Shown: piece by piece, positions 30,039 through 49,927 of the stretch
Numbering within the stretch: position 1 is the first letter of the stretch
Layout of the letters: each line of letters opens with the position of its first letter
Assembly: GCA_050015375.1 (NCBI GenBank)
Contig: JBEKBN010000006.1
Location: 454 to 64,453, forward strand
Direction: 5' to 3'
Source of the DNA: Minisyncoccia bacterium
Lineage (GTDB): Bacteria; Patescibacteriota; Minisyncoccia; 2-02-FULL-40-12; IGHO2-01-FULL-4-A
Length of the DNA: 64,000 nucleotides
Translations under genes and position numbers: made by a program
The notes under the pieces: model-generated
The model's database searches: none
What the model was told of the DNA's origin: nothing
Seen by the model: the letters and a program-made list of their open reading frames with translations, nothing else

Positions 30039-30109
30039 GCGGGATTAGTACAGTGGCAGTACAATTGCTTCCCAAGCAATGGACGCGAGTTCGATTCTCG
30101 TATCCCGCT
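30039..30109 (+). tRNA. tRNA-Gly (anticodon CCC)
   Basis: Acceptor GCGGGAT/ATCCCGC, D-arm GTACAGTGGCAGTAC, anticodon loop TTCCCAA, T-loop TTCGATT. CCA is not encoded. Confidence 0.85.
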
Positions 30110-30269
30110 CAAAAATCAAAAAATTTTTTGATTTTTGAGCGGGTAAGCGAGCAAATTTATTGCTCGCGTCAAGATGAGAACGCCGGAGCGATGTTTCGCG
30201 AGTGATTGGCGAGCGAAACCGCGAGGCGGTGGCTAGACCGAGCCGCCGGAAGGCGGCGAGAGTCGAAGC

Positions 30270-30432: not shown

Positions 30433-30987
30433 ATGTGCGAGCGGATAAAACTTAACATTCACGAAAAGGTCGAATTGATCCGGGCCTTTTTCGAAAAGAT
30501 CGAATTGCTTCCAGTAAGAATCGTACCGGGTTCTCTTCCGGCTCAATGTAAGAATATGATCGTTGATTCCGGCTCCGAAAAAGATGTTTGTTTTAATAGC
30601 CTTTTCCTGGCCAATATTTTGATCAAAACATGGAAAAAAATTGGTCGCACAGAAACCATTAATTTAGGCCTGATCGAGCGGATTTTTTGTGATAATTTGA
30701 TGCGAGACCAAATGGGCGGAAAGTCTCCGGATCTGCTGGAAAGGTTTATTTTTTCTGATCCGAGAGAACCTGAAAGGTATAGTCGGCAATTGATTCTGGC
30801 TTTGTTTATGTTAGTTCGGAATCATTTTATCGAGATTAACGGATGCGGTAACATTAGCCGTGGTTCAAGTCCTTTTTTAGAAGCTTATGCGATATGCCTG
30901 ACGCCTCAATGTCCGCCTGACAAACTTTGGCAAGTGGACATGATGGCCGAAGAAATCGCCCGCGCTACAAGACAGGAATTATCCTAA
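30433..30987 (+). CDS. hypothetical protein (184 aa)
   Basis: SD AAGGAGG before the ATG at 30433. The track's 30202 start would run through tRNA-Thr. Confidence 0.5.
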   Translation: MCERIKLNIHEKVELIRAFFEKIELLPVRIVPGSLPAQCKNMIVDSGSEKDVCFNSLFLANILIKTWKKIGRTETINLGLIERIFCDNLMRDQMGGKSPDLLERFIFSDPREPERYSRQLILALFMLVRNHFIEINGCGNISRGSSPFLEAYAICLTPQCPPDKLWQVDMMAEEIARATRQELS

Positions 30988-31048
30988 TAAAACCAGCCAT
31001 CCCCTGCGAGATGGCTTTTTTGTTGAAATATTGATGATGACTGGTAAG

Positions 31049-31342
31049 TCAGTTCTTTATCTTCTCGATGATCTTGTTGGTTTCGAGGATCTTCGGCTGG
31101 GCCAATCGGTAAAAAACCGTGAGCCCCTGCCGGCGGGGAGCGATAATATTAGCGTGGCGCAGGAGCGACAAATGCTGGGACACATTGGCTTTCCGCAAAT
31201 TCAAACCCTTGATCAGATCGGCGACTGCCGTCTCGCCTTTTTTTAAGATATCCAAAATCTCCAGCCGTATCGGGTTGGCCAGGATCTTGTAGAGTTCGGC
31301 TTTTTGCTCGTATTTCTTTTTGTCTTCTTTCGAAACAGTCAT
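31049..31342 (-). CDS. ArsR/SmtB-family transcriptional regulator
   Basis: LANPIRLEILDILKKGETAVADLIKGLNLRKANVSQHLSLLRHANII is an ArsR HTH. Confidence 0.8.
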   Translation of the reverse strand: MTVSKEDKKKYEQKAELYKILANPIRLEILDILKKGETAVADLIKGLNLRKANVSQHLSLLRHANIIAPRRQGLTVFYRLAQPKILETNKIIEKIKN

Positions 31343-31473
31343 AATATCGGATTATTGAATGTATTTCTGAAGATCGTCTGAATACTATCTATACTATACG
31401 AAAGGTTGGTGATTTTGGTGCAACGGTTGACCGGTGATTTTTTGCTGTCGGTATAAATTACGGGGGTCTCGTC

Positions 31474-31517
31474 ATAACATGTAGATATTGACCATATGGT
31501 CAATATCTACATGTTAT
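31474..31517. promoter_or_regulatory. 44-bp perfect palindrome (ATAACATGTAGATATTGACCAT|ATGGTCAATATCTACATGTTAT), putative operator
   Basis: Perfect dyad 30 bp upstream of the PaaX-like gene, in a divergent region shared with arsR. A near-copy is at 32111-32138. Confidence 0.6.
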
Positions 31518-31546
31518 TGTTTTATAGTTTCTGTTATTATGTATTC

Positions 31547-32113
31547 ATGAAGGCGATAAGAAGAGGAACCCTAGCTTTTAAAATTTTAAAAGGCATTGGT
31601 CTAACGGGTTTGTTTTTAATAAGCATGTCGAACCCGCGTTTTGGGGTTCAGTTATTGACGGGATTTAAAGAATATAACAAAAGGGAGAAACAAAAATTCA
31701 GAGAATCGTTATATTATTTGAAAAAAAGAGGATTGGTAAAAATCATAGAAAACAGTAGCGGCGGCTTTACGGCCAAATTGTCAAAGACCGGAGAAAAAAT
31801 GTTGGAATCTATCGACATTGATTGTCTTGAATTGAAAAATAAGGAATTTGATGGAAAATGGCGCGTGGTTATCTTTGATGTTCCGGTCAGATTGAATATT
31901 AAAAGACACGCTTTTACGGAACGACTGAAAACTCTGGGTTTTATCATGGTTCAAAGAAGTGTATGGATTTGTCCGTTTAGGTGCAGAAAAGAACTGGCGA
32001 TGTTAACCCAATTTTACGAAATTGAGAAATACGTCACATATTTAGAAACATCTTTTGTGGATAACGAAGAAGCGTGGAAAAAAGAGTTTTCACTAATCAA
32101 ACTGGTGGCTTAG
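31547..32113 (+). CDS. PaaX-like regulator: N-terminal winged helix plus a C-terminal Cas2-fold domain
   Basis: SLYYLKKRGLVKIIE (wHTH), then GKWRVVIFDVPVRLNIKRHAFTERLKTLGFIMVQRSVWICPF, which resembles the Cas2/PaaX_C motif (YDV..KRR...L...G.R.Q.SV). Confidence 0.5.
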   Translation: MKAIRRGTLAFKILKGIGLTGLFLISMSNPRFGVQLLTGFKEYNKREKQKFRESLYYLKKRGLVKIIENSSGGFTAKLSKTGEKMLESIDIDCLELKNKEFDGKWRVVIFDVPVRLNIKRHAFTERLKTLGFIMVQRSVWICPFRCRKELAMLTQFYEIEKYVTYLETSFVDNEEAWKKEFSLIKLVA

Positions 32114-32138
32114 ATATTCACCATATGGTCAATATCTA
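32111..32138. promoter_or_regulatory. imperfect 28-bp palindrome (TAGATATTCACCAT|ATGGTCAATATCTA), second copy of the operator-like dyad
   Basis: One central mismatch relative to the 31474 dyad. Overlaps the stop codon of the PaaX-like gene. Confidence 0.5.
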
Positions 32139-32217
32139 CACTTGGGGGTGTTGATATTGTGAGCGGATGACATAACCATGTTTCTATAAAAAGAAACACG
32201 GTTTTATTTTCCACAAG

Positions 32218-32246
32218 TTGACGGTGAAATCCATGAACATTATAAT
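32218..32246 (+). promoter_or_regulatory. sigma-70-like promoter (TTGACG-17 nt-TATAAT) upstream of the tasA-like gene
   Basis: Near-consensus -35/-10 about 80 nt upstream of 32327. Confidence 0.5.
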
Positions 32247-32326
32247 TTCGATATAACTAAACAATTTCCGTCGGAGGCGACTTTGACTTAAAGTAAAAGC
32301 CGAGAAAAACGGGAATTTTTCACGAA

Positions 32327-33637
32327 GTGAAAAAAATAATTTTGAGTTTGGCAGTTATCGGCGCGGTTTCGGTCGGCGTCATCGGAGGGACACGCTCTTT
32401 TTTCAGCAATGTCGAAACCTCGACCGGCAATTCTTTCACCGCCGGCGGAATTGATCTGAAGGTCGGGAATGTTAGTTATTACAACGGCGTCGCTTCGGCC
32501 AGCAGTTCCTGGTCGGCCAAGGATTTGGCGGCGGGAGATTTATTTTTTAATTTTTCTAATTTAATGCCCGGCGATATCGGTGAAAATTTAGTTGACCTGA
32601 ATGTCAAAGGCAATGACGCCTATGCTTGCATGACTGTTGCCATTACCGGAACTTCCAAAAACGGCCAGACCGGCGACAACGCAGGCGAATTGCAAAATGA
32701 ATTACATTTCACTTTTTGGGCCGATAACGGCGACAATGTTCTTGAAAGCGATGAAGTGGGCAAAATTTTTGTGGATAATGAAACTCTGGCGCAAATTGCC
32801 AGCAGTCAGGCGAAGATCATCTTAGCTGATTCGACAAAAAATGTTTGGAATACTGCCATGGTTGCCGGTTCGATGACCAGCGGCCAGACATACCACATCG
32901 GCAAAGTATTTTGTTACGGATCGTTGACCCAAGCCCTGGCCGCGCCCGGCATAAACGATCCGACTAAAGTCAGCGGATTTAATTGTAACGGGACATCGGT
33001 GAGTGATGCTTCCCAAACCGACGGTGTTTTGGGAGATATCAGTTTCACGGCGATCCAGTCGAAGAACAACGGTTCCTTCCGATGCAATCCCGTGGCGACA
33101 GTGACGCCGACCCCGACCCCGATTGCAATCTGGAATGATAATTTCGGAATTGGAGATGATAGCAATATAGTTGACAGCTGGGCCAAAACAAATGGTAACA
33201 CCGCCAGTGTCAGCGCTTATGGTACCTATGCCAAAAAGCCAACCACGGGTGATAATTCGGAAAGCCCCGACAATGGGCGGTTTGCACTTATTGCCGGCAA
33301 AGAATGGATTTGCCATCAGGTTGACGCGACGGGCTTGATGGATTTAACTCTTAGTTATTATTGGCGGGGAGATATTGACGCCGGCGTTTTAGATAATGGA
33401 GTAGTTGAATATCTTATTAACGGCGCCTGTGATTCATTAACTGGCTGGACAACTTTGGCAAATCATCAGCTTATCAAAGATGATTCTGGTAAAACCTCTT
33501 GGAGTGCGCTCCAGACCTTGAACTTGCCGGGCGACTTAAATAATACCCAATTTTTGATTCGCTTTCGCAGCAACTCTTCATCTCAAACGAAAAGCTTTCG
33601 AATTGATAACGTGAGCATGACCGGAATTCCAAATTAA
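32327..33637 (+). CDS. TasA/camelysin-like secreted protein with a SipW-cognate signal peptide
   Basis: N-terminus MKKIILSLAVIGAVSVGVIGGTRSFFSNVETSTGNSFTAGGIDL is the TIGR04088-type SipW-cognate signal. SipW is encoded immediately downstream. Confidence 0.7.
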   Translation: MKKIILSLAVIGAVSVGVIGGTRSFFSNVETSTGNSFTAGGIDLKVGNVSYYNGVASASSSWSAKDLAAGDLFFNFSNLMPGDIGENLVDLNVKGNDAYACMTVAITGTSKNGQTGDNAGELQNELHFTFWADNGDNVLESDEVGKIFVDNETLAQIASSQAKIILADSTKNVWNTAMVAGSMTSGQTYHIGKVFCYGSLTQALAAPGINDPTKVSGFNCNGTSVSDASQTDGVLGDISFTAIQSKNNGSFRCNPVATVTPTPTPIAIWNDNFGIGDDSNIVDSWAKTNGNTASVSAYGTYAKKPTTGDNSESPDNGRFALIAGKEWICHQVDATGLMDLTLSYYWRGDIDAGVLDNGVVEYLINGACDSLTGWTTLANHQLIKDDSGKTSWSALQTLNLPGDLNNTQFLIRFRSNSSSQTKSFRIDNVSMTGIPN

Positions 33638-33666
33638 TTCACGGGTTAACTGATTTACCGGTTCAA

Positions 33667-34536
33667 ATGAAAATAATTTTCAGGATTCTTTATTATTTGT
33701 TTTTCACGGCGGTTATTGTCGTTGTTTTGGCGTTGCTGGTGTCATTATTTCCGATTTTCGGGGGATTGAAGTTTTTCATTGTTCGATCGGGCTCGATGGC
33801 ACCGGCGATCAAAACCGGAAGCGTAGTGATGGTCAAACCCGAAGCCGATTACAAAATCGGGGATATAATATCGTTCAGTTTGGATGAAAAAAATGAAATA
33901 CCCACGACTCACCGCATCAAGGAAATAAAAATCAAAAACGGAATTCAGAAATTTATCACTCAAGGCGACGCCAACAACGCGCCGGACATGGTTGAAATTG
34001 AAAAAGAAAATATTATCGGCAAAGTGATTCTGACCGTTCCTTTAGCCGGATATTTGGTTGCAGTCGCTCAAAAACCGAGCGGTTATCTGGCGCTGATATT
34101 GATTCCGGCGTTCGTGATAATCGGCGACGAAATCTCGAAGATCATCAGGGAAACGAGAAAAAAACGTCAAGAGAAAAGCCAATCAAGCAACAAATCAATC
34201 CCATTCTATATTTTTTGTTTGGGTCTGGGACTTGCCGAGCTTTTACTCCCATCAATTCGCGCAAATTCGTTTTTCACGGCGACTGAAACCGGTGGGTTGA
34301 TGATAGTTGCCGGTTCGTGGTCACACGCCAAGACATCGGGCATCGCTATCGTGGCTCAAGAACCGACTTCTGATTCCGAGATTGACGTTCAAATCGCGAG
34401 TGGCGCTTCGGGAATCGAGTCAAATAAGGATGAACTAGCCCCAGAGCCGGCGGCGCCTCCGGCGCCGCCGGCCCCCGAAATCCCGCCGGCCGAAACCACC
34501 GTGGCGAGTCCTTCCGCCGAAATCATTCATGATTAA
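33667..34536 (+). CDS. sipW: signal peptidase I, SipW/archaeal type (S26B), with a Pro/Ala-rich C-terminal extension
   Basis: FIVRSGSMAPAIKTGSVVMV (SGSMxP), catalytic His in PTTHRI, and a second TM. The C-terminus is PEPAAPPAPPAPEIPPAE. Confidence 0.8.
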   Translation: MKIIFRILYYLFFTAVIVVVLALLVSLFPIFGGLKFFIVRSGSMAPAIKTGSVVMVKPEADYKIGDIISFSLDEKNEIPTTHRIKEIKIKNGIQKFITQGDANNAPDMVEIEKENIIGKVILTVPLAGYLVAVAQKPSGYLALILIPAFVIIGDEISKIIRETRKKRQEKSQSSNKSIPFYIFCLGLGLAELLLPSIRANSFFTATETGGLMIVAGSWSHAKTSGIAIVAQEPTSDSEIDVQIASGASGIESNKDELAPEPAAPPAPPAPEIPPAETTVASPSAEIIHD

Positions 34537-35410
34537 AACAAAAGTAAAACCAATTTTGACGGCAATTATTCTGTTTTTCGTTTTTTCGACCATTTTTTTG
34601 TCCGTCGTCAGTGTTCAAGCCGCCGATTTTCAGGTTACCTTCCAAAATCATCCGCTTTTCAAAAACGCCAATTTCATTCCCGGCGATTCGATCACTCGTT
34701 GGATCAAGGTCGTCAACAACAGCGGCCAAAATCAAACCGTCTTGATAAAAAGCGACAATGCCAGCGACCCCAATCACATGGACGGCGCAATGAATCTGAC
34801 CATCAAACAAGGGACCGCCACGCTTTATCAGAATTCTTTCGCTGATTTTTTGAGCGGGGACTTGATCGCTCTTTCTGAACTTGATAGCGGAAAAAGCGCT
34901 CAATATAATCTGACGGTTACATTCGATTTGTCCGCTGATGATCTTTATCAAAACAAGACGCTTGGTTTTAATATTCTTGTCGGTTTTGAACCGACCGGCT
35001 ACGAACAAAGCGATACCGGCACAACTTTTCTAACTGACAATCCCGATAATAAAGTCGAGGTTGTAACAATGACGCCGACGCCTTCGATAATTTCGTCGTC
35101 GCCGACGCCGACTCCGTCGGCGTCGGCGACCCCATCTCCCCGGCTAAAACCCAGCGTGAGTCCAATTTTACTTCGATCATCGCCAGCGCCCGTAATCGTT
35201 CACAATATTTCTTCCGCTACCACGTTATCCGCCAATTCACTTGCAACCCCGAACCTCCCGCCGTCTCTGACGACCGCCAATCCCGTCCGCCAACCCCAAC
35301 TCGCCCTCATTCTCGGCGTTTCCCCGACCCGCTGGCTGATCTATATTTTCATTTCCCTATTTGTCGGTATCGTTTCTTATGTAATTTCAAAAAAGTGGTT
35401 TAAAAATTAA
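34529..35410 (+). CDS. secreted surface protein with a Pro/Thr/Ser linker and a C-terminal TM anchor
   Basis: Signal peptide, a beta-rich domain, a PTPS-rich linker and the C-terminal anchor IYIFISLFVGIVSYVISKKWFKN. The anchor-coding segment is duplicated at 36193-36262. Confidence 0.5.
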   Translation: MIKTKVKPILTAIILFFVFSTIFLSVVSVQAADFQVTFQNHPLFKNANFIPGDSITRWIKVVNNSGQNQTVLIKSDNASDPNHMDGAMNLTIKQGTATLYQNSFADFLSGDLIALSELDSGKSAQYNLTVTFDLSADDLYQNKTLGFNILVGFEPTGYEQSDTGTTFLTDNPDNKVEVVTMTPTPSIISSSPTPTPSASATPSPRLKPSVSPILLRSSPAPVIVHNISSATTLSANSLATPNLPPSLTTANPVRQPQLALILGVSPTRWLIYIFISLFVGIVSYVISKKWFKN

Positions 35411-35411
35411 A
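35343..35411 (+). repeat. direct repeat copy 1 (about 70 bp, C-terminal anchor-coding segment)
   Basis: About 92% identical to 36193-36262. Together they bracket the PEP-CTERM gene cassette. Confidence 0.7.
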
Positions 35412-35517
35412 GATCGGAAACGGCGCGCGGATTTGCTTTATTATTTATCCTATGCTAGAGTGTTCGTAAGCTCATTAAGTTTGGCATCGAACCTTCACAC
35501 GAGGAGAGGAGAAGTTT

Positions 35518-36135
35518 ATGAAAAGAATGACCGTTTTGGGTTTGTTTCTGGTGGTTTTCCTGACCGTGTTTGCCGTATCGGTGAACGCCGAGACATTGGC
35601 ATTTAACGGCTATCCGTGGGGACTGAACGACGGTTCCTTCTATGTTGGAGACGCCGCCGGCACGCTGGGGACGAATAATATTGTAATGTGGTGCGTGGAT
35701 CCACTTCACGAAATCACGTTGAGTCCCTGGGATGTTACTGTCGTGTCTCTGGCAAATCCAATCGGACTAAACGGATTGCCCTTGACTGTGGCCGACTACG
35801 AGGCAATGTTTCTCCTCGGTCAGCAGTTCACGAATACAAACCAAACGATAGATGTGGCGCTACAGCACGAGATCTGGTCGTTCGCTAACCCGTCGGCATA
35901 TCCTCTTACGGTAGCCGAGCAAGGGCAGAAAAACGACGCCATAGCAGCGATCGGCGGTTATAACTTTTTGGGCGCTGACGTTCTTGTTCCCCAGGGAGAT
36001 CCTAGCGGGTGGACAGGGCAGGTTTTCGAGACCGGCACCGCGACTATGGTCCCTGAGCCCGCGTTCATCTTACTGTTAGGCCTGGGCCTAATGGGTGTCG
36101 TTCTGGCGGCCGGAGGAAGAAAACAGAAAAACTAA
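35518..36135 (+). CDS. secreted protein with a C-terminal PEP-CTERM sorting signal
   Basis: SD GAGGAGAGGAG. Signal peptide. The C-terminus VPEPAFILLLGLGLMGVVLAAGGRKQKN is a canonical PEP motif plus TM plus basic tail. No exosortase gene is in the window. Confidence 0.65.
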   Translation: MKRMTVLGLFLVVFLTVFAVSVNAETLAFNGYPWGLNDGSFYVGDAAGTLGTNNIVMWCVDPLHEITLSPWDVTVVSLANPIGLNGLPLTVADYEAMFLLGQQFTNTNQTIDVALQHEIWSFANPSAYPLTVAEQGQKNDAIAAIGGYNFLGADVLVPQGDPSGWTGQVFETGTATMVPEPAFILLLGLGLMGVVLAAGGRKQKN

Positions 36136-36192
36136 CCACCTTTTCGTATACGGTGGCCATTCCTTGAAGGAACGGCCACCGATTTTTTTTAT

Positions 36193-36262
36193 TATATTTT
36201 TAATTTCCCTGTTTGTCGGTATCGTTTCTTATATAATTTCAAAAAAGTGGTTTAAGGATTAA
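36193..36262 (+). repeat. direct repeat copy 2 (orphan anchor-coding remnant, LFLISLFVGIVSYIISKKWFKD*)
   Basis: Noncoding copy of the 35343-35411 segment that still reads as an in-frame anchor peptide. Confidence 0.7.
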
Positions 36263-36412
36263 ATTGTCAGCAGTGGATAACCTATTGCATTGTTTCGGTA
36301 TCTGATATATAAGGTAGATAGTCACGTTTTTTTCAACTTTCTTAAATCGTCTCACCGGATGGCGCCGACTCCGAACTCTTGTTAGCCGCCAGCACTGCCC
36401 GATGGACCTGTT

Positions 36413-39400
36413 TTGTTTATGAAAATAAACAAACTTGGGGGGGGGCTTAAGTGGTCGATTTTCGCAACTCTTTTAGCAACCGCTCTAGTAGGCGGATTTT
36501 TTGTACACAATGCCAAGGCGACTGTTAGCACCTGTTCTGATATCACCCTTGGTGTGACTCAAATCACTGCTATCCAAACCTATGCCACCGCTGACAATAC
36601 TTTTGCCGACGGCTGGAAATGGGTTTTCAATGTTACCGTTCCGACTTGCCAAACACTTCTTCAAATGAGATTCGGTGACTGGGTTGGAACCGCTGGCACC
36701 ATTCCAGCCGCGACAAATATTCAATTTTATTCTAATCAATCTACAAATGCAGCCGATGAGGCGCACGCAATAATTATCAGTGCCGCTAATACATATAGTG
36801 GTTTGATGATCCTTTCTGGTGCTGATCTTGATGGGTCAACACCCGGCACCCAGATCCAAATAACAGTTGAAGCGAGAGTTCCAATTGATTCAGCTGGTGG
36901 TTCTTACTCGACAAGTTATGGCATACAATCGAATCCTGCACCGACCGTTCTATTCGTTCTCCCTATCGGTAACATCAATGTTGCTAATGGCACCGCTCTT
37001 GATGCTGTAGGTTTGCCGGCTAATGCTACCGTAGGTTTGAGCAACGGAAACACTCAATTAATGGCAGTCGTTTGGGATGGTGGTACGCCAACTTATGACG
37101 GCACAACAGCTGGCACCTATGCTTTTACAGGTGCATTGACTTTACCTGCTGGTGTTACTAATCCGGACGGCAAAACAGCCAACGTAAACGTAATTGTGGA
37201 ACCAATACCTACCCACACCATTACCTCCTCTGTTGTAGGCGCATCTGTCTTTGGTCCGAAACACGGCACGATTTCTCCTCTCGGTGCAACGACCGTGAAT
37301 GATGGCGACAGCCAGACCTACACGATTACGCCCGATACCGGCTACCAGATTCTTGAGCTTAAAGTGGACGGTGTTTCCACAACGCCGGCCGACAGTTATA
37401 CTTTCACCAATGTCACAACTGACCATACCATTGCCGTGAGCTTTGCCCCGATTACTTATACCTTAACCTATTCCGCCGGAGCCCATGGTTCCATTGTTGG
37501 AACTTCGCCCCAGGCAGTAAATTACGGCGCTGATGGAACAGCCGTGACTGCGACGCCAGCCGAGGGTTATCATTTCGTAGGTTGGAGCGATCAGTCAACA
37601 ACTAATCCGAGAACCGACAACGATGTAACCGGCAATATTGATGTCACTGCCAGTTTTGCAGTTAACCAATATACAATTACTTTTGGTTCAAATGGTGGCT
37701 CAGCCGTAGCTTCCATAACTCAGGATTATGGCTCACCGGTTACTCCACCAGACGATCCAACTCGAGCAGGTTATACCTTCGCCGGTTGGGTTCCAACAGT
37801 TCCGGCAACGATGCCATTAGGCGGAGCGAGTTTAGTTGCCCAGTGGACTGCTGTTGTTGCACCAATCACCCACACTCAAAAGGATCTGACGACTTGGGTT
37901 CCGATTCAGGGTGGAATAACTGCCGATGTAACAATTTCAACAGTAAATAATAAATTCCACGCAGACGGAGTTCCAACTGGATATACTTTGGTGTATTACC
38001 CTAATGTTGGAACTTATGATACCTACACTGGAGAAGTTTATCCTGTAGAGGGCACTAATATGGATCTTCCAATGTCAGATGATTTGAATCGCGGTAAAGA
38101 AGATTACTGCAATAATGGATTTAATCCACACGCAATTCACTGTGATGGCGCTAAGTTGTGGCTTGTTCCAACCGAAGACATATCAACAACAATTAATTCT
38201 GATGGAAGCCAGACATTGGTTGGAGATTGGAATACGATCGCTCCGAATATTTTGTTCGAGACAAATCTGATAACTTATCAAGCAACTCCGATCACTCACA
38301 CCCAAAAGGATCTGAACACCTGGGCTCCACTTCCAAATGGAATAACTGCCGATGTTACATATGACCTGACCGGAGATACTTTCCAAGCGACCGGAGTTCC
38401 ACCTGGATATACTTTGGTGTATTATCCTAAACCCGCAACTTGGACCGGATTGGTCTATTCCGTCATTGGTAATAGCATGACCCTTCCAATGCCAGGTGAT
38501 TTGAATGGTAGTCCATCATCAGATTACTGTACCGTTAGAAATAGTGAGGGGAATTTGGAAAATCCGCATGAAATAATTTGCCAAGGAGCCGCGTTGTGGC
38601 TTGTTCCAACGGGTGAATTAACAGATAACCACGATGGGACTTATACAATTAATTGGGGCACTGCTTCTGATATTTTGTTCGAGACAGACCTGATAAATTA
38701 CACAGCTCCGACTTCTACCCCAAGCGCTAATCTTATTCTCACCGCTCCAGATGCCACAACTATTAATCAATCTGCTTTAGTTCCTGAAACGAGCAACGGA
38801 ATACCCACTGGCGGAAACTCAACAGTTGATACTGCCATCAATGGCCTTAGCCCGATTGCGGTGAGGTTGCAGAATACCGGCGATGCCGCTTCTGCTAATG
38901 TTCGCATCAGCCCGATTGGCGACGCTTCTGGGCACATTCAGTTATGGGCAAAAGATACTTTAGGTAATTGGTATGACATCAATGTTACTGGCTGGGGGCC
39001 AGCCGAAGGTTTTCCAGTGCCAGCCCCATACGATGCCACTACTAATGTCTATGCGATTTCCGACGAAGTAGGATCTTATGACATGATAGCTAATTTGATT
39101 TTGGTAAGTAATTCATCACTCGTTGCGCACACAAAGGGAATAATTACCGTTGCCCCTGCCCCGACCCTTTTGTTTGATACCGGCATCACTGATGGTTCCA
39201 CTATCTTACCGGGTACACTTGCAACTCAGTTCACGATTACAACTACGGGTGTCCCGGGTACGATGCACACGCTTGGGTTAACGGGCACCACAGCAACTCC
39301 AGCTCTTGCAGATGGCAATTATGACTTTAAGCTTGTGGCAACCTCAGACGTGCAAGCCGCTTTGACTTCTTATTTTGGAGCTAAGGCAGGATGGACTTCG

Positions 39401-40051
39401 GATATGCAAATGCAAACTCAAATCAATTCTGAAATTGCTGGCAGCTCGCCATTCTTCAAACTAAACGCTGCCAGCGGCGCCTATTCCTTAGTGGATAATT
39501 TCAAACAAACACTTGGCTTGCCAGATACATCCCTGACTATTGATGATGATTATCCAACCGGCACATACGTCTATACCGGCACACTTACTGGAACAAACAG
39601 CGCGACCCTGCCGGTTACTGTAACATTGGTAGTTGAAGGACCAACTCCGCCACCAACTCCTTCTGTAACACAATTGAAAATTATTACTAATCCGCAAACT
39701 ATTCTGGTAGATACCGCTTCAGGTGTGATTAGAGTGGAATCAGAGGACGCGTTAGGGAATCCATTAAAAGTTTCAGTTGCGACAGAAGTAGATTTCACCT
39801 CCAGTCCTGGAACAGGTTTGTTTTCTTCGGCAAATTATGAAAGTAAAACGTGTAATGACGATTGGTTAAGCACGCAAAGTTTAACCATAGAGAAAGGAAC
39901 TGCACATATAAGTTTCTGTTACAAAGACAACGTGGCGGGAACGCCGACACTAACAGCTTCTTCTGATGACTTGACTCCTGGTACTCAAGTAATTACAATA
40001 ACCTCAACTGATACCAGCTCAACTGACACTAGCGACACCACGCAACAATAA
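36413..40051 (+). CDS. giant repeat-rich cell-surface protein (Listeria-Bacteroides/flg_new-type repeats, Ig-like domains)
   Basis: 1212 aa with a signal peptide, repeated modules (ITHTQKDL...GVPTGYTLVYYP twice) and GYTFAGW-type repeats. A G9 tract sits in the signal-peptide coding region. Confidence 0.75.
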   Translation: MFMKINKLGGGLKWSIFATLLATALVGGFFVHNAKATVSTCSDITLGVTQITAIQTYATADNTFADGWKWVFNVTVPTCQTLLQMRFGDWVGTAGTIPAATNIQFYSNQSTNAADEAHAIIISAANTYSGLMILSGADLDGSTPGTQIQITVEARVPIDSAGGSYSTSYGIQSNPAPTVLFVLPIGNINVANGTALDAVGLPANATVGLSNGNTQLMAVVWDGGTPTYDGTTAGTYAFTGALTLPAGVTNPDGKTANVNVIVEPIPTHTITSSVVGASVFGPKHGTISPLGATTVNDGDSQTYTITPDTGYQILELKVDGVSTTPADSYTFTNVTTDHTIAVSFAPITYTLTYSAGAHGSIVGTSPQAVNYGADGTAVTATPAEGYHFVGWSDQSTTNPRTDNDVTGNIDVTASFAVNQYTITFGSNGGSAVASITQDYGSPVTPPDDPTRAGYTFAGWVPTVPATMPLGGASLVAQWTAVVAPITHTQKDLTTWVPIQGGITADVTISTVNNKFHADGVPTGYTLVYYPNVGTYDTYTGEVYPVEGTNMDLPMSDDLNRGKEDYCNNGFNPHAIHCDGAKLWLVPTEDISTTINSDGSQTLVGDWNTIAPNILFETNLITYQATPITHTQKDLNTWAPLPNGITADVTYDLTGDTFQATGVPPGYTLVYYPKPATWTGLVYSVIGNSMTLPMPGDLNGSPSSDYCTVRNSEGNLENPHEIICQGAALWLVPTGELTDNHDGTYTINWGTASDILFETDLINYTAPTSTPSANLILTAPDATTINQSALVPETSNGIPTGGNSTVDTAINGLSPIAVRLQNTGDAASANVRISPIGDASGHIQLWAKDTLGNWYDINVTGWGPAEGFPVPAPYDATTNVYAISDEVGSYDMIANLILVSNSSLVAHTKGIITVAPAPTLLFDTGITDGSTILPGTLATQFTITTTGVPGTMHTLGLTGTTATPALADGNYDFKLVATSDVQAALTSYFGAKAGWTSDMQMQTQINSEIAGSSPFFKLNAASGAYSLVDNFKQTLGLPDTSLTIDDDYPTGTYVYTGTLTGTNSATLPVTVTLVVEGPTPPPTPSVTQLKIITNPQTILVDTASGVIRVESEDALGNPLKVSVATEVDFTSSPGTGLFSSANYESKTCNDDWLSTQSLTIEKGTAHISFCYKDNVAGTPTLTASSDDLTPGTQVITITSTDTSSTDTSDTTQQ
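36437..36445 (+). repeat. homopolymeric G9 tract within codons 9-11 of the giant surface protein gene
   Basis: AAACTTGGGGGGGGGCTTAAG. The only G/C homopolymer of 8 nt or more that I found in the window. Confidence 0.8.
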
Positions 40052-40065
40052 ACAACTAAAACCCT

Positions 40066-40749
40066 ATGAAAAAAAATATATTGATAATTTTAGTGTATGG
40101 ATTGCTGGCGGTGTCGCTGTTTGTGTTTGGTAATCGGGTGTTTGCGGACCAAGTCACCGGAACTCTGACAACAGGAATTAGCGGCAATAACGGCCAAACA
40201 ATGAATGGCGTGGTCATTGCTCCGCCGATACCTAGCCCATTGCCCGGAACCTATCCCTTAACACAGGATAACGTGGCCCTAAAAGTTGGTTTGTCTTCCG
40301 CCGGTTCGATGAGTATTCGCTATGCTACAGATGGGTCTGTACTGACATGCGCTAACGGGAATCTATACAATGCTAATGCTCTGATTCCGGTGAGTGTCAC
40401 AACGACAATTGAGGCAATCTCGTGTTATCCAAATGGAATTTCATCTGCGGTCGCTGGTTTCACTTATACAATTAATCCGGCGACTCCGACTCCAACGCCT
40501 ACCACATCTACTGGTGGCGGCGGGGGAGGCGGGGGCTCATATTATTCCTTTACCCCGACCCCAACTCCGAGTCCAGGTGTGGCCATAGTGGGCGATATAA
40601 ACGGTAATGGTAAGGTGGATATTAGTGACTTCGATATGTTGATGAACAATTGGGGGAAAACCGGAACTGGAATCCAAGGCGATTTGGACCACAACGGCGT
40701 TGTTGATATATTGGATTTTAATTTATTGATGGCTAACTGGAGTAAATAA
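40066..40749 (+). CDS. dockerin-domain secreted protein
   Basis: C-terminus GDINGNGKVDISDFDMLMNNWGK...GDLDHNGVVDILDFNLLMANWSK is two canonical dockerin type I Ca-binding repeats. Also carries a signal peptide and a Gly8 linker. Confidence 0.7.
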   Translation: MKKNILIILVYGLLAVSLFVFGNRVFADQVTGTLTTGISGNNGQTMNGVVIAPPIPSPLPGTYPLTQDNVALKVGLSSAGSMSIRYATDGSVLTCANGNLYNANALIPVSVTTTIEAISCYPNGISSAVAGFTYTINPATPTPTPTTSTGGGGGGGGSYYSFTPTPTPSPGVAIVGDINGNGKVDISDFDMLMNNWGKTGTGIQGDLDHNGVVDILDFNLLMANWSK

Positions 40750-40768
40750 TTACGACAAAATCACAAAC

Positions 40769-41518
40769 ATGAAAAAAATATTGTTCAGTTCAATACTGGT
40801 CACTGGATTCGCGGTTTTTTTTGTCGGAAATGCTCTGGCCGATTCATCAATATCGTTGTCGCCGGTTAGTATTTCTCCGAAAGCGGGAAGCACGGTCAAT
40901 GTTACCGTGACGGTCAATCCAAATAGCGTCAGTAATTCAACCGTAAAGCTTGTACTTAATTATCCCGCCGATCTTCTGCAAGCAACAGGATTCACTTTTG
41001 CCGGTAACTGGATGCCGTTGACTCAAACCGGTTACGATTCCATCGATAACACAGGAGGTACCCTGATTAAAACTGGCGGTTATCCGGGCGGATTCTCGAC
41101 AACCACGACCCTTGGCACGGTAACATTCAAAGCGAAGAGAACCGGCACCGGCGCAATCAGTATCGGAAGCGGTTCAATGGTTCTGGATTTAAGCAGTAAA
41201 AATGTTTTGACCGATATTTCTTCAACTGTGACAATTTCAATTCCGACTTTAACAGCGCCGACTCCGAAACCGTCAACAATTGTAGGCAATATTCCGGCAG
41301 TTTCGCCGGTAACTGGCGTCACTGAATCGGCGACGCCGAGCCCCATTGTCGCCGCCAATGCATTGCCAGCCAATGGCCAGCAATACGGCACTATCGCCAC
41401 GGCCCTCGGAATTCATAACGGCACGTGGTGGATTTGGCTAGTAGTTCTCTTGGTCATCATCTATCTCATCTATCGGATATTCAGGAAAAGATCCGGCCCG
41501 AGCCAGCCGACTCAATAA
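40769..41518 (+). CDS. cohesin-like domain protein with a C-terminal TM anchor
   Basis: Signal peptide and a beta-sandwich region (VKLVLNYPADLLQATGFTFAGNW...GTVTFKAKRTGTGAISIG) resembling cohesin. C-terminal anchor WWIWLVVLLVIIYLIYRIFRKR. Confidence 0.5.
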   Translation: MKKILFSSILVTGFAVFFVGNALADSSISLSPVSISPKAGSTVNVTVTVNPNSVSNSTVKLVLNYPADLLQATGFTFAGNWMPLTQTGYDSIDNTGGTLIKTGGYPGGFSTTTTLGTVTFKAKRTGTGAISIGSGSMVLDLSSKNVLTDISSTVTISIPTLTAPTPKPSTIVGNIPAVSPVTGVTESATPSPIVAANALPANGQQYGTIATALGIHNGTWWIWLVVLLVIIYLIYRIFRKRSGPSQPTQ

Positions 41519-41569
41519 GTTTCGGAGACAGTAAGCAACTCGCCTGCCCGAAGGGGTAGGAGGTGGATA

Positions 41570-41597
41570 TTGACAACAAAAACCAGCTTGATATAAT
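41570..41597 (+). promoter_or_regulatory. strong sigma-70 promoter (TTGACA-16 nt-TGaTATAAT) upstream of the panA-like gene
   Basis: Consensus -35 and an extended -10, about 110 nt upstream of 41707. Confidence 0.6.
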
Positions 41598-41706
41598 GGA
41601 GGTACTAAACGTGAAAAGCATCCTAGATGGGTGCTTTTCGGTCTATGGTGCATAACTTCATAGAGTTTGCCTGTTAAAACTGTCATAATTAATATAAAAA
41701 GAACTT

Positions 41707-42243
41707 ATGAAAATACCGCTACCAAAACTCAAGGCGATTATTAGGTATTTTGGTACCCATACTGATCCCAAATTTCTCGGCAAGGTTAAATTAATGAAAC
41801 TTTTCTACTTTCTTGATTTCATGCATGTCAAAAAATTTGGTGCACCCATAACATATGACTGTTATATCAACTTAGAACATGGTCCAATACCGTCAGCTAT
41901 TAAAAATCTAGTTGACTCGGCCGCAGATGATATTGATAATTCCGTCCTCGCTGACGCAATCAGGATTGAAAGACCGCAAAGTACCGATATGTACAGAGTG
42001 GTGCCTCTTAGGGAATTCAATAAAGCTGATGAAAATTATTTCTCTGAAACCGAGCTCGAAACATTAAAAAAAGTATGCGCAAGGTTTAGCGACAAAAATA
42101 CGAAATTCATTGAAGATGAATCTCACAAAGAAGCTCCGTGGAAAGAAACCAAGTTTTTGGATGTAATACCCTACGAACTCGCCACTAAGGACAAAGATTG
42201 TTTAATATCCGAAGAAGAAATAAAACTACTTCTTTCTATCTGA
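41707..42243 (+). CDS. Panacea-domain (DUF4065, SocA/PanA-like) antitoxin
   Basis: KVKLMKLFYFLDFMHVKKFGAPITYDCYINLEHGPIPS and ESHKEAPWKETKFLDVIPYELA match the DUF4065/Panacea consensus (KLQKLLYF..., SHxExPW). Confidence 0.75.
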   Translation: MKIPLPKLKAIIRYFGTHTDPKFLGKVKLMKLFYFLDFMHVKKFGAPITYDCYINLEHGPIPSAIKNLVDSAADDIDNSVLADAIRIERPQSTDMYRVVPLREFNKADENYFSETELETLKKVCARFSDKNTKFIEDESHKEAPWKETKFLDVIPYELATKDKDCLISEEEIKLLLSI

Positions 42244-42244
42244 A

Positions 42245-42655
42245 GTGCTTAACCTAATAAAATTTGGGGATGTTTTTGTTTATAAAGGTACTGAATGGGT
42301 TTTCTTGGCAAAAACCGAAGAACTCCTTTTCGCAGCCCAAATACTGGATAAAGAGCAAACGGCTCAAATAGATTTATTATTTAATAAGCTAGCCTCAAAG
42401 GGCAGCAAGATTGCCGACCAGATAAAAGATAAACCTCTTTATTGTTATGTTGTCCTCGAGACAGAAAAATTTAAAAGAAGAGCAGCTCATTTCAAAACAG
42501 CCATCAGCGGCAAAAGCGCAAATGATAATGAGCCTTTTTTTGATAAAATACTGGATCCTTTGATAAAAAGCGATTTGGTTAATATTAAAAAACAAATTAT
42601 AAATGGTCCGTTTAGCAAATTACTTAAGGATATAGTAAGGGATATTGATATTTAA
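42245..42655 (+). CDS. candidate PanT-type toxin of unknown family (136 aa), translationally coupled to panA
   Basis: GTG start 1 nt after the panA stop. No recognisable domain. Classified by its position in a two-gene module. Confidence 0.4.
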   Translation: MLNLIKFGDVFVYKGTEWVFLAKTEELLFAAQILDKEQTAQIDLLFNKLASKGSKIADQIKDKPLYCYVVLETEKFKRRAAHFKTAISGKSANDNEPFFDKILDPLIKSDLVNIKKQIINGPFSKLLKDIVRDIDI

Positions 42656-42667
42656 AATGAAACTACT

Positions 42668-43213
42668 ATGAACATACCGACGAAAATATTTTTTACAAAA
42701 GGGGTGGGAGCGCACAAAGACCGGCTGGCTTCTTTTGAGATGGCTTTGAGGAATGCCGGCATTGAAAAATGCAATCTGGTTTATGTCTCAAGTATTTTTC
42801 CTCCCCGGTGCAAGATCGTTACAAAAGAAGAAGGTATGAAATCGCTGGAGGCGGGCCAGATAACTTTTTGCGTCATGGCAAGGAATGAAACCAACGAACC
42901 CAACAGATTGATCTCTTCGGCGATCGGAGTCGCCGTGCCAAGAGACAATAGCACTTACGGTTATTTGTCGGAGCATCATAGTTTTGGAGAGAAAGCGGAA
43001 ATAGCCGGCGAATACGCGGAAGACCTGGCCGCCACCATGCTTGCCACCACTCTTGGAATAGAATTTGATCCGGCCACGGCCTGGGAAGAAAGAGAACAAA
43101 TTTACAAAGCAAGCGGGTACATATTTAAGACATCAAATTTTTGCCAGACGGCCGAAGGAAACAAAAACGGATTATGGACAACAGTCATCGCCGTCGCGGT
43201 AATGCTGGAATAA
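42668..43213 (+). CDS. pdaD: pyruvoyl-dependent arginine decarboxylase
   Basis: [37 protein letters not shown] matches the PdaD family, including the Ser-Ser self-cleavage site. Confidence 0.8.
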
Positions 43214-43265
43214 AACAGACCCTCCCTTTGGCATAATTGTATCAAAATGATACTATTGTGGTCAG

Positions 43266-44390
43266 ATGAAGTATAGAAATCATGAAACTGAAGTTGTTTT
43301 GTTTTTCGCCGTTTTTTTGATGGGAATTTTGGTTTTTGCGGTCGGGGCGGAAAATGCCAGGGCGAGCTATCACTTTGCCAATTATCGGGGACAACCGCCG
43401 ATCCATATTTACGGCGGGACGAGTAAAACACCCAAAGGCATGACACCGGCACAAATCAAAAAAATCTACAATTTGCCGGCAAGCGGGGGCTCGGGCACGA
43501 TCGCTATTGTCGGCGCGTACGATGACGCGACGATCGAGGCCGATCTGGCTGGTTTCGATAAACAATTCAATCTCGTGTCTTGCACGACTAAAAACGGCTG
43601 TTTTGAAAAACATAAAATGAGCTCGGCAATTTCGGCCAACAGCGGCTGGGCGTTGGAGACGACGCTTGACGTGGAATGGTCGCATGCCATTGCGCCGAAC
43701 GCCAAAATACTTCTCGTCGAAGCGACGACGCCAAGTGGAGCCAATCTTCTGAAGGCCATTGATTACGCAACGGGCCGAGCCGACGCAGTGGCAATTTCAA
43801 TGAGTTGGGGCGGAGCTGAATTTCCGGAAGAAACCACATTAGATAGTCATTTCGTCAGCAAATCAGGCGCCGTCTTTTTTGCATCCTCGGGCGATAACGG
43901 CTGGGGCGCGTCTTGGCCGGCATCGAGTCCGAATGTCATCGGCGTCGGCGGGACGACCGTTGTCATGAGCTCGAACGGAACTTTTCAAAAAGAAACTGCC
44001 TGGAGCGGCAGTGGCGGCGGTGTCAGCAAATACGAAAAACAACCCGGCTTTCAGGCGGATTATTCAATAACCAAAAGCAACGGCATGCGGGCGATCCCTG
44101 ATGTCGCTTATGATGCCGATCCGGCTTCGGGTTTCCCGATCTATCGTCTTGGCATTTGGCGAACGGTTGGGGGAACTTCCGCCGGCGCGCCTCAATGGGC
44201 AGGTATCGCCGCTTTGAACCACTCGGTTTCAAACAGCAAGATTTATCAGGACAAAGCGGCCGACAATTTCGCATCATATTTTCGCGACATCGTCAGCGGC
44301 GCGAACGGCGATTGTAAATATTATTGTCAAGCCCGAAAACATTACGACTACATCACCGGCCTGGGCAGTCCTCAGACATCATCATTCTGA
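43266..44390 (+). CDS. secreted subtilase/sedolisin-like serine peptidase (S8/S53 clan)
   Basis: Signal/TM region, then SSGDNGW and GGTSAGAPQWAGIAAL (catalytic Ser motif). The subfamily is not resolved. Confidence 0.65.
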   Translation: MKYRNHETEVVLFFAVFLMGILVFAVGAENARASYHFANYRGQPPIHIYGGTSKTPKGMTPAQIKKIYNLPASGGSGTIAIVGAYDDATIEADLAGFDKQFNLVSCTTKNGCFEKHKMSSAISANSGWALETTLDVEWSHAIAPNAKILLVEATTPSGANLLKAIDYATGRADAVAISMSWGGAEFPEETTLDSHFVSKSGAVFFASSGDNGWGASWPASSPNVIGVGGTTVVMSSNGTFQKETAWSGSGGGVSKYEKQPGFQADYSITKSNGMRAIPDVAYDADPASGFPIYRLGIWRTVGGTSAGAPQWAGIAALNHSVSNSKIYQDKAADNFASYFRDIVSGANGDCKYYCQARKHYDYITGLGSPQTSSF

Positions 44391-44431
44391 TCTTATTTGA
44401 GCCGCAGGGGATTTCAGTGTATTCTTAAACC

Positions 44432-44758
44432 GTGAAATACTCACCACAAAAAATCGGATTTTTTCAGGCGATCGGGGTCGTTTTGTATATTTGTCTTTTC
44501 GCGACGGCAGTTCAGATCGTCCAAAACTGGAGACCGAGTTTTTTCATGCAATCCGGACCGGCCAGCGGAATTATAATTTTTCTTTTGGTTTTCGTGGTTT
44601 CGGCCACGATTTGCGGGGCGATGTTTCTGGGTTATCCGGCGGTTCTGTTGTTTGAAGGCAAAAAATCCGAAGCCGTCAAAACGGTGCTTTGGTCAATTCT
44701 CTGGCTGGTCATCTTTGCTATCGTCATCGGCTCGGCTTTTCTTCTTTTGGTTTATTGA
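44432..44758 (+). CDS. hypothetical membrane protein
   Basis: Three predicted TM helices. No motif. Confidence 0.45.
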   Translation: MKYSPQKIGFFQAIGVVLYICLFATAVQIVQNWRPSFFMQSGPASGIIIFLLVFVVSATICGAMFLGYPAVLLFEGKKSEAVKTVLWSILWLVIFAIVIGSAFLLLVY

Positions 44759-44818
44759 CCGCTGGCAATTTTTCAAGCAGTTTTTTCTTCATTGACGCCA
44801 ATGATTTTTTGAGATATT

Positions 44819-45520
44819 GTGTTTTTGCGTTCTTTTAATAATCCATATCATTTTGAAAGGCGGTGGCAAGTGGAGCCAGGTGCGGTATTGACGGGCCATG
44901 CGGCCGTTCGGATCAGTGGTAGATTAAGTTTAACCGCTCAGGTAGTGAGAGTTTTGCTGGATTCAGGTTTGTTTGTCTTATTATCCGAGGACAAAAATAA
45001 GAATTGTGTTCGCAAGCTGATCTACTCTGAGATTGATGATTTGTGTTTCGTTGTCATTCAGAATTGTGTCAACGGGAATATAGTGACAATTCATGAAGCC
45101 GAACATTGCGCAGAAATTTCAACCGAGGCGATGGCGCAAGCAAAAGAACTGGTCGGGAACATAGAAATCGGGACATACTTTAATCCCGTTTTGATCCAAA
45201 ACGACCAGAAAATCAGGTTTGGAATATATTATCTGGATTCAGCTGCCAACCAAACACGAGTATTGAACATCAAAGTTACCGCGAATAAGTATCTCGGGAT
45301 TCTTGATCCTTTGGAAGCAAACGCGGAACTGGAGGATGAACTTTGCGAGATGATAAAGCGATCACTTCGTCCAAAAGATATAATTATGTCGGCATTTTTT
45401 AAAATCACTGAAAAAGATAAAGCCAGATACTTCCCAGTTAAAAACCTCCTTATCCACCTGGACTCTTTGCGAAGAAGGTCTTTGCGAAAAAAATCCTTGA
45501 CCAAAACCGCCTCTACCTAA
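44819..45520 (+). CDS. hypothetical protein
   Basis: 233-aa ORF. No motif recognised. The start is uncertain. Confidence 0.4.
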   Translation: MFLRSFNNPYHFERRWQVEPGAVLTGHAAVRISGRLSLTAQVVRVLLDSGLFVLLSEDKNKNCVRKLIYSEIDDLCFVVIQNCVNGNIVTIHEAEHCAEISTEAMAQAKELVGNIEIGTYFNPVLIQNDQKIRFGIYYLDSAANQTRVLNIKVTANKYLGILDPLEANAELEDELCEMIKRSLRPKDIIMSAFFKITEKDKARYFPVKNLLIHLDSLRRRSLRKKSLTKTAST

Positions 45521-45635
45521 GTCGGACAACATCCGGCTTTTATGTTTGACATTGTGGATAACTTCTGGTATGATGGGTAAATCAGAGTTGTTCTTTGCCA
45601 TCACGATATTTACCTAAACCTGAAAAGGAGAATCC

Positions 45636-46037
45636 GTGGAAAAAAAGAATGAATTAATTCGGTCTGCTGCTTATTTGATGATCTGCCCGACATGTCTAGT
45701 TCATGGCTGGTTCATCTCCGCTGACGGGAAAAAAAGTCGCGGATTTGCTTCAAAGGAATCCGCCAAAATCGAGCTCGAAAGAGGTTTTTCGGCCGGCGTT
45801 TATTCACTGGAGGAGAGGCAACATCTGAAGGTCGAGATTGAGTCATGTTCATTGGCTGATCTCGAGATTGAAGTTGGGTATTTCAACCATGTGCTCGATG
45901 TCTCCGAGAATTCAAGCGTGGATCTATCAGTTTTCACGCGCATACTCGCCGCCTTGTCAAACGAAGAGGTGAATCCGGCGATTTATACCGACAAAGAACT
46001 CGCCAGTTTGCCGACCGGCAGTAAGTATGCCATGTGA
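45636..46037 (+). CDS. hypothetical protein
   Basis: GTG start with SD AAAAGGAGAA. N-terminal CPTC motif. Confidence 0.45.
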   Translation: MEKKNELIRSAAYLMICPTCLVHGWFISADGKKSRGFASKESAKIELERGFSAGVYSLEERQHLKVEIESCSLADLEIEVGYFNHVLDVSENSSVDLSVFTRILAALSNEEVNPAIYTDKELASLPTGSKYAM

Positions 46038-46048
46038 AAGGAGCCGGT

Positions 46049-46264
46049 ATGAAAGATATCCTTGAATTTTATGTCGCGGTTATCTTGGTATTTTTTGCGA
46101 TTATTTTTTCGGACGATATCGCTGGTATGATTATGTATTCATTTCAGCCGTCGCGTCCGAGAATTGTCGTGAATGATCTGAAGAAGGAATTGAAAACCAT
46201 TCCATTCCTCGTACTTCCGCTATACCTTTCCAGACGCAAATCGCGCCACATCCCGCCAGAGTAA
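46049..46264 (+). CDS. small hypothetical membrane protein (71 aa)
   Basis: SD AAAGGAG before the ATG at 46049. One TM helix and a basic C-terminus. Confidence 0.4.
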   Translation: MKDILEFYVAVILVFFAIIFSDDIAGMIMYSFQPSRPRIVVNDLKKELKTIPFLVLPLYLSRRKSRHIPPE

Positions 46265-46392
46265 TCGGCGGGATTTTTTCTTTTCTTTTTTTCCAATTTT
46301 GATATAATAAAATCAATGCAAGAACTGCGAGAAATGATCGAAGAAATGCAGTTGAAAGTCCCTGTTCACCCCTCACCCAGAAAGCTAAAATT

Positions 46393-46647
46393 ATGTTCTG
46401 CGTTTATTTAATTAAAAGTTTAAAAGATGGCTCGATCTATATCGGATACACGCCTAATTTAAAAAGGAGGTTAGCAGAACATAATTCAAATCAAAGTGTG
46501 TATACAAAAAATAAAGGACCATACGAACCGATTTATTGCGAGTTTTACAAATCGAAACAGGATGCAATAAATCGAGAACAAAATTTGAAAAGATTTGCGC
46601 AAGCATATTCGCAGTTGAAAAAAAGAATTACTTTTTCTCTGGAGTAG
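46393..46647 (+). CDS. GIY-YIG nuclease-domain protein (UPF0213/Slx1-like)
   Basis: VYLIKSLKDGSIYIGYTPNLKRRLAEHN...REQNLKR is the GIY-YIG motif set. Confidence 0.7.
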   Translation: MFCVYLIKSLKDGSIYIGYTPNLKRRLAEHNSNQSVYTKNKGPYEPIYCEFYKSKQDAINREQNLKRFAQAYSQLKKRITFSLE

Positions 46648-46683
46648 CTTTCTGGGTGAGGGGCAAGTCCGGGAGTTTAACAT

Positions 46684-47758: not shown

Positions 47759-47780
47759 TTTGTAGATTGGAACGCCAAAA

Positions 47781-47816
47781 CTACTTACTACTCACTACTT
47801 ACTACAAACTAACTTG
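47781..47816. repeat. heptamer tract (CTACTTA/CTACTCA/CTACTTA/CTACAAA/CTAACTT) abutting the ftsE TTG start
   Basis: Five 7-nt CTA-anchored units ending CTAACTTG, the same junction as at the galT TTG start. Confidence 0.6.
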
Positions 47817-49402: not shown

Positions 49403-49443
49403 AAAGAGCTCCATAATTTGGAGCCCCCGATAACAAGTGAAAT

Positions 49444-49830: not shown

Positions 49831-49927
49831 TTCGCTCTCCTTTTCGGTTGTGACGGGACTTATTATTGTATATCAATATTATCGAATGTTGTCAATTCCT
49901 GATGGATAGCAGGGGAATATTCAGATG

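Follow-up and report, generated by a model that had tools for sequence, protein, structure and literature searches.

The window analysed here, a stretch of 64,000 nucleotides (nt) from a Minisyncoccia bacterium known as a metagenome-assembled genome (MAG) of the Patescibacteria or candidate phyla radiation (CPR), contains a gene for a secreted protein of 1210 amino acids (aa) whose signal-peptide coding region includes nine consecutive G residues (G9). The question addressed below is whether this tract could act as a slippage-prone on/off switch of the gene, that is, as a site of slipped-strand phase variation, as an earlier note on this DNA had proposed. The relevant features, all on the + strand, are the following.

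36419..40051, + strand: gene for the 1210-aa secreted, probably surface-exposed protein (translation, domain matches, public gene calls)
36419..36520, + strand: signal peptide MKINKLGGGLKWSIFATLLATALVGGFFVHNAKA (read from the translation and compared with the N-termini of the family)
36437..36445, + strand: G9 homopolymer, codons 7-9, proposed slipped-strand switch, in the ON register (sequence, in-silico length edits, run and codon statistics)
36527..36937, + strand: conserved family domain of ~140 aa, residues 37-173 (E 1.8e-68 to the A1 profile)
40066..40749, + strand: first cassette partner, a 227-aa CHB_HEX_C/Fn3_assoc and dockerin-like protein, 14 nt after the 1210-aa gene (domain matches)
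40769..41518, + strand: second cassette partner, a cohesin-like protein of 249 aa whose C-terminal part is hydrophobic, 19 nt after the first (Cohesin match below the Pfam cut-off)

The 1210-aa protein, named by NCBI an InlB B-repeat-containing protein of a Minisyncoccia bacterium, consists of a signal peptide, the family domain, a Big_4 domain, InlB B-repeats (Flg_new/Flg_new_2), two internal repeats of ~140 aa and a Ser/Thr-rich C-terminus. Its membership of the InlB B-repeat proteins is borne out by the Pfam scores (Flg_new, 61.5 bits against a cut-off of 27; Flg_new_2, 57.3 bits against 23.6) and by the TIGR02543 score of 28.2 against a cut-off of 20.95. The signal peptide comprises a basic n-region, which includes the three glycines (Gly3) encoded by the tract, a hydrophobic core with the GGFFV motif of the family, and an A-x-A end; a signal peptide of the SipW-dependent (TasA/camelysin) type is not indicated, as the 1210-aa protein has no match to TIGR04088, which is matched by a neighbouring 436-aa camelysin-like protein alone. 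Since Gly3 occurs in none of the other N-termini of the family, the glycine peptide as such is not the maintained feature. The signal peptide, the Big_4 and InlB B-repeat domains and the association with cohesin-like and dockerin-like genes together suggest that the protein is exposed on the cell surface.

The nine G residues at 36437-36445 are read as GGG GGG GGG in a + strand open reading frame (ORF) ending at 40051, sequence and translation agreeing here with what the earlier note had stated. That note had given the protein 1212 aa, which is the number of codons counted from the TTG at 36413 where the ORF opens; the public gene calls begin at ATG 36419 and yield 1210 aa, and the N-termini of the family (MK...) agree with this second start, so that the tract occupies codons 7-9. 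Its position in the signal-peptide region of the largest surface protein was likewise correctly described, the protein being the largest secreted one in the window and the tract lying in its n-region. On editing the tract in silico, G9 gives 1210 aa, G8 leads to a stop after 18 codons and G10 to a stop after 10 codons, while G6 and G12 keep the reading frame; the predicted truncation after about 10 codons is thus right as regards an early stop in both directions, and its figure applies to G10 and not to G8. Inspection of the sequence reveals no in-frame start codon close after the tract. Two alternative starts were considered and rejected, a GTG at 36451, which lies in another frame and starts only a short ORF, and an ATG at 36403, from which a stop is reached after 6 codons, and hence variants in the OFF state would not be rescued by a downstream start or by one in another frame. 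In a second record, the ENA contig k141_408795 (ERZ27250144), the sequence is identical over window positions 30730-50051 (19.3 kb), G9 included.

How far the tract departs from chance can be judged from the composition of the window. At 46% G+C, A/T runs of up to 8 occur freely in it. There are 46 G/C runs of at least 5 and two of at least 6, with an approximately 5-fold drop per added base, and the only other run of at least 6 is a G6 at 55640, so that the tract, put forward previously as the only G/C homopolymer of 8 or more, is even the sole one of at least 7. Order-2 and order-3 Markov models and the empirical decay predict 0.03-0.07 G/C runs of at least 9 in 64 kb; an order-1 model predicts 0.49. 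Codon usage points in the same direction: GGG is the rarest glycine codon of the window (9.4%), GGG-GGG encodes 2 of the 127 Gly-Gly pairs, both within the tract, and none of the 16 other Gly-Gly-Gly triplets consists of GGG throughout (0/16), mixed codons being used instead. G9 is a clear outlier in the window, and the over-representation relative to composition and codon use that is expected of a contingency locus is found when measured on these 64 kb. Three further attributes of such loci are also present, namely a hypermutable perfect repeat (for G/C, ~7-8 or more; thresholds from PMC4965091 and PMC5320596), a 5' position inside the ORF at which a change of one unit produces a premature stop, and a product that, judged by its domains, is exposed on the surface. 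At the sequence level, the G9 gene therefore has the properties by which contingency loci are recognised. The gene for tRNA-Gly(CCC), which is cognate to the rare codon GGG, is located at window positions 30039-30110, 6 kb upstream of the tract and beside the gene for tRNA-Thr(CGU); the ENA contig ends at window position 30730, just downstream of the two tRNA genes, and the window therefore stems from a different and longer assembly of this organism.

The domain that follows the signal peptide, of ~140 aa (LGVTQITA...GWKWVF...GGSYSTSYG), has no Pfam model and is common to many proteins of Patescibacteria at 50-65% identity. When 1.84 billion cluster representatives were searched with a profile, 761 were found to have the domain, and 58 genome and 80 metagenome loci were fetched for the family. 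The domain is always placed either directly after the signal peptide, as in the window protein, or at the extreme C-terminus. Its fold, modelled with confidence, is a beta-sandwich (predicted local distance difference test, pLDDT, 89); an assignment to the chaperone-usher pilins was considered and not adopted, the PDB matches being weak (E 2e-3, template-modelling score, TM, 0.43-0.46). A homologue of the dockerin-like gene at 40066-40749 is found directly downstream of the family gene at 85 of 140 loci, and is itself followed at many loci by a homologue of the cohesin-like gene at 40769-41518. Judged by this gene order, the window gene is part of a conserved three-gene cassette consisting of a family gene, a dockerin-like gene and a cohesin-like gene, which may represent a system for surface display or anchoring. 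The window itself contains one family member.

Repeats comparable to G9 recur in this family and at the same place. Strong repeats were defined as G/C runs of at least 8 or dinucleotide repeats of at least 6 units, and 13 of them are found in ~1.04 Mb of unique sequence around 140 family loci. Seven of the 13 fall within the 150 nt preceding the domain in family genes of the N-terminal type, a zone that makes up 0.8% of the sequence and for which 0.1 would be expected (binomial P = 3.5e-12, or 8e-7 when only four independent origins are counted). Two further strong repeats lie in family genes, one in the n-region and one inside the domain. The repeats in family genes, with their positions and phases, are as follows.

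L096: G9 at codon 20 (MKSILKGSVSVFIAAVFMIGGGFYVHSAQA), ON
L111: G8 at codon 32, ON
L086: C8 at codon 30, OFF
L004: (CT)12 at codon 7, ON
L011: (CT)6 at codon 3, ON
L138: (CT)14 at codon 3, ON
L026: (CT)6 at codon 11, ON
L092: (TC)10 at codon 7, in the n-region, ON
L072: G10, in frame (…SSRGGGQIEI…), at 1517-1526 inside the domain, codon 133, ON, in a genome of 36% G+C

The signal peptides of L004, L011 and L138 are homologous to one another, as are, in a separate group, those of L026 and L092. At the ON loci, the gain or loss of one unit leaves an ORF of 7-49 aa, with the exception of L072, where 180 and 138 aa remain. Because the repeats differ in type and in the codon at which they lie, and because relatives lacking a repeat use mixed codons at the corresponding positions, this distribution points to the repeated and convergent gain of such repeats within the family. 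In the L011 locus, a second G9 is present at 1804-1812 in an intergenic region of 640 bp, 440 bp upstream of the (CT)6 family gene, in a genome of 38% G+C; no convincing promoter was found to span this intergenic tract.

Natural alleles in both phases exist among the relatives of the window gene. In the MAG contig L004, a (CT)12 repeat (9880-9903) places the gene in the ON state, and in the replicate assemblies L060 and L061, both of Hainich groundwater, a (CT)13 repeat (2920-2945) places it in the OFF state. The two versions align over 4282 nt without a mismatch and with a single gap, the CT unit itself; beyond this, L004 and L060 differ only in how many copies they have of a large tandem repeat situated in the 3' half of the gene (~11186-11395 in L004 vs ~3934-4521 in L060). 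Both alleles belong to one groundwater population. This locus carries the same dockerin-like/cohesin-like cassette as the window. From its start codon the (CT)13 allele is read to a stop after 19 codons, and the gene caller resorted to an internal ATG, so that the product (P0135) is annotated as truncated and devoid of a signal peptide. The case carries a practical warning, namely that gene finders miscall alleles in the OFF phase as proteins truncated at the N-terminus and lacking a signal peptide. Three other annotated proteins (P0251, P0141 and P0270), whose annotated starts fall within the signal peptide or the domain, were examined as possible OFF alleles and set aside: they have an intact in-frame signal peptide and no repeat, and represent gene-caller start errors. 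Across the C8 of L086 the reading frame changes between the signal peptide and the domain, and C9 restores it; in the relative L037 nine bases (CCCCCACCC) occupy the position of C8.

In the light of this family, in which genes have comparable repeats at the corresponding position and exist in natural on and off versions, G9 is best read as a translational on/off switch of the 1210-aa surface-protein gene operating by slipped-strand phase variation, a reading to which we assign a probability of about 0.65. On replication the nine G residues would mispair by slippage, with the gain or loss of a base; the resulting G8 or G10 would put the remainder of the 1210-codon gene out of frame, such that no secreted protein would be made (OFF), and a second slip could return the tract to G9 (ON), the state represented in the assembled sequence. 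Changes to G6 or G12 would only remove or add a glycine, which the n-region of the signal peptide would be expected to tolerate. The population would then always be mixed, composed of cells with and cells without the 1210-aa surface protein, and such a mixture could constitute bet-hedging with respect to attachment to host cells or escape from phages. The phase variation first suggested from the homopolymer is in this way supported by genes of the same family and the same cassette, whose 5' repeats exceed chance and whose alleles occur both ON and OFF. The tract with its frameshift consequences, its outlier status in the window, the recurrence of repeats in the family and the ON and OFF alleles of relatives are observed; that this particular G9 varies, that the variation is under selection and that the protein acts in attachment or as a phage target is inferred.

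Several observations weigh against the switch. Tract length does not vary between the two assemblies, the window record and the ENA contig both having G9, and these possibly derive from the same reads. Two protein searches covering 5.8 billion sequences recovered no full-length homologue of the 1210-aa protein apart from itself; as the whole-protein query was swamped by InlB B-repeats, the second query had those repeats removed, and it returned relatives at the level of domains only, the best with 49% identity. Likewise, scans of GTDB genomes and JGI metagenomes for the exact DNA flanks, with any tract length allowed, gave 0 matches. About 85% of the family genes have no strong repeat. Evidence for ON and OFF alleles is clearest for (CT)n, not for poly-G. 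A protein search with the N-terminus of L096 for poly-G alleles in the two phases yielded no near-identical sequence. The sole OFF allele of a poly-C tract, that of L086, is on a contig of 1.75 kb and could reflect an assembly error or a pseudogene. Finally, ~0.5-8 tracts of this kind per Mb are compatible with the order-1 to order-3 models, and by the low-order models approximately one G9 in a genome of ~1 Mb could arise by chance.

The last of these points, together with the two concordant records lacking polymorphism and the want of an orthologue in which the tract could be seen to persist, favours an incidental origin, in which three glycines accumulated through drift or in-frame slippage at a place where the signal peptide tolerates them and frameshifts are merely deleterious. 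The G8 tracts in the flanks of two relatives (L016 and L018), which lie mid-way in ordinary genes, also speak for such an origin. Nevertheless, an incidental tract would have to employ the rarest glycine codon three times over, a solution avoided by every other glycine triplet, in a window that strongly avoids G/C runs of at least 6; moreover, if a hypermutable tract were harmful at codon 7 of the largest gene, synonymous change should soon eliminate it, and repeats have been gained independently several times at this place in the family. We consequently regard an incidental tract as unlikely, although it retains more weight than any other alternative to the switch.

Slow codon ramps at the 5' end of genes for secreted proteins are a known idea, and the cluster of rare GGG codons, or the G-rich stretch acting as a Shine-Dalgarno-like sequence, could slow early elongation and so tune secretion, the DNA repeat being a by-product. 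In its favour count, besides this precedent, the proportion of GGG among glycine codons (only 9.4%) and the tRNA-Gly(CCC) gene in the window. Family members, however, have no glycine cluster at that place. The codon content of their repeats is unrelated, since (CT)n encodes Ser/Leu and poly-C encodes Pro, and some of their alleles are out of frame; a codon ramp accounts for neither point. Most genes of the genome are, moreover, without Shine-Dalgarno motifs, and a translation-level signal appears quite improbable. That the tract is an artefact, its true length being different or the poly-G arising in the reads, is hardly credible despite the error-proneness of homopolymers and the origin of the second contig (k141_...) in a short-read metagenome assembly, as G9 keeps open an ORF of 1210 codons with a complete signal peptide and lies deep inside a long contig that is identical in the two records over 19.3 kb.

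Phase variation by slippage in repeats, the mechanism favoured here for G9, is textbook biology in host-adapted pathogens, and the Patescibacteria are uncultured organisms with tiny genomes that live attached to other cells. In Campylobacter and Neisseria, tracts of at least 7 G or C in the 5' coding region are the standard device of phase variation (PMC4965091, PMC5320596). A close parallel to the G9 gene is pilC of N. gonorrhoeae and N. meningitidis, whose 5' coding part contains a poly-G tract of G9 to G15 (Jonsson et al. 1991, summarised in PMC5320596): in both, one G more or less shifts the frame between ON and OFF, and two of the three registers are OFF. However, pilC belongs to an unrelated Gram-negative pathogen and encodes an unrelated protein, and its switching was demonstrated by experiment and strain comparison, whereas at the window gene it is deduced from sequence features. 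The relatives with dinucleotide repeats resemble rather oipA of Helicobacter pylori (and also sabA and babA/B), in which the number of CT repeats in the signal-peptide coding region sets the ON or OFF state (PMC10564699), just as (CT)6, (CT)12 and (CT)14 are ON and (CT)13 is OFF in the family; in contrast, the window gene has a mononucleotide tract, the proteins and cell envelopes are unrelated, and the states described here are known from sequence. The opa genes of Neisseria are similar in that surface-protein genes each possess their own 5' coding repeat setting the frame, and dissimilar in that the unit is a pentamer, CTTCT (PMC5320596), and that many paralogues occur per genome, against one family member in the window. 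Campylobacter jejuni, like the genome considered here, has G/C tracts of at least 7 in the reading frames of surface structures within a small genome otherwise poor in such tracts (PMC4965091, PMC8355987), but with ~29 poly-G/C contingency loci per genome as compared with one in 64 kb here.

For Patescibacteria or the CPR, full-text literature searches turned up no account of phase variation mediated by repeats. The window gene would thus be a case of a known mechanism in proteins and organisms unrelated to those of the model systems. A broader view, which we advance tentatively and hold at somewhat less than even odds, is that Patescibacteria carry a dedicated and widely conserved display cassette, made up of a variable giant cargo with the ~140-aa beta-sandwich, a dockerin-like adaptor and a cohesin-like membrane anchor, and that the cargo has repeatedly come under stochastic ON/OFF control by convergent repeats in the signal-peptide region (poly-G, poly-C and (CT)n), the window G9 being one instance. 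If true, ultra-small episymbionts would thereby have their first described contingency-locus system, and it would govern host attachment or phage escape. A repeat switch on the largest surface proteins provides a concrete hypothesis for surface variation, and the three-gene cassette is a likely apparatus of attachment or display.

The surroundings of the gene include one further feature.

36152..36190, + strand: terminator-like hairpin GGTGGCCATTCC / GGAACGGCCACC followed by T8 (36183), ending the upstream gene (read from sequence)

This hairpin has one mismatch in its stem and for that reason is not listed by a consensus terminator scan. Since it terminates the upstream gene, the 1210-aa gene has an upstream region of its own, 228 nt in length. 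A promoter scan found no sigma-70-like promoter on the + strand upstream of the gene, an Rfam scan found no known RNA elements around the tract, and a Shine-Dalgarno-like motif is missing before the start codon in most of the window's genes.

Two adjacent ORFs of 836 and 609 aa were considered, on grounds of size only, as MutS and MutL and proved to be DUF4012 and LepA proteins. Further upstream, the cluster at window positions 32327-36135 resembles tapA-sipW-tasA: it contains the gene for the 436-aa camelysin-like protein, whose signal peptide is of the SipW type (TIGR04088), a SipW-like gene for a signal peptidase of archaeal type (33667-34536), and genes for a 293-aa protein of unknown nature and a 205-aa protein with a PEP-CTERM-like C-terminus. 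Right after the cassette, at 41707-42655, an antitoxin-like gene with a SocA/Panacea domain (178 aa) overlaps an ORF of 136 aa without family matches, and the two may form a toxin-antitoxin pair.

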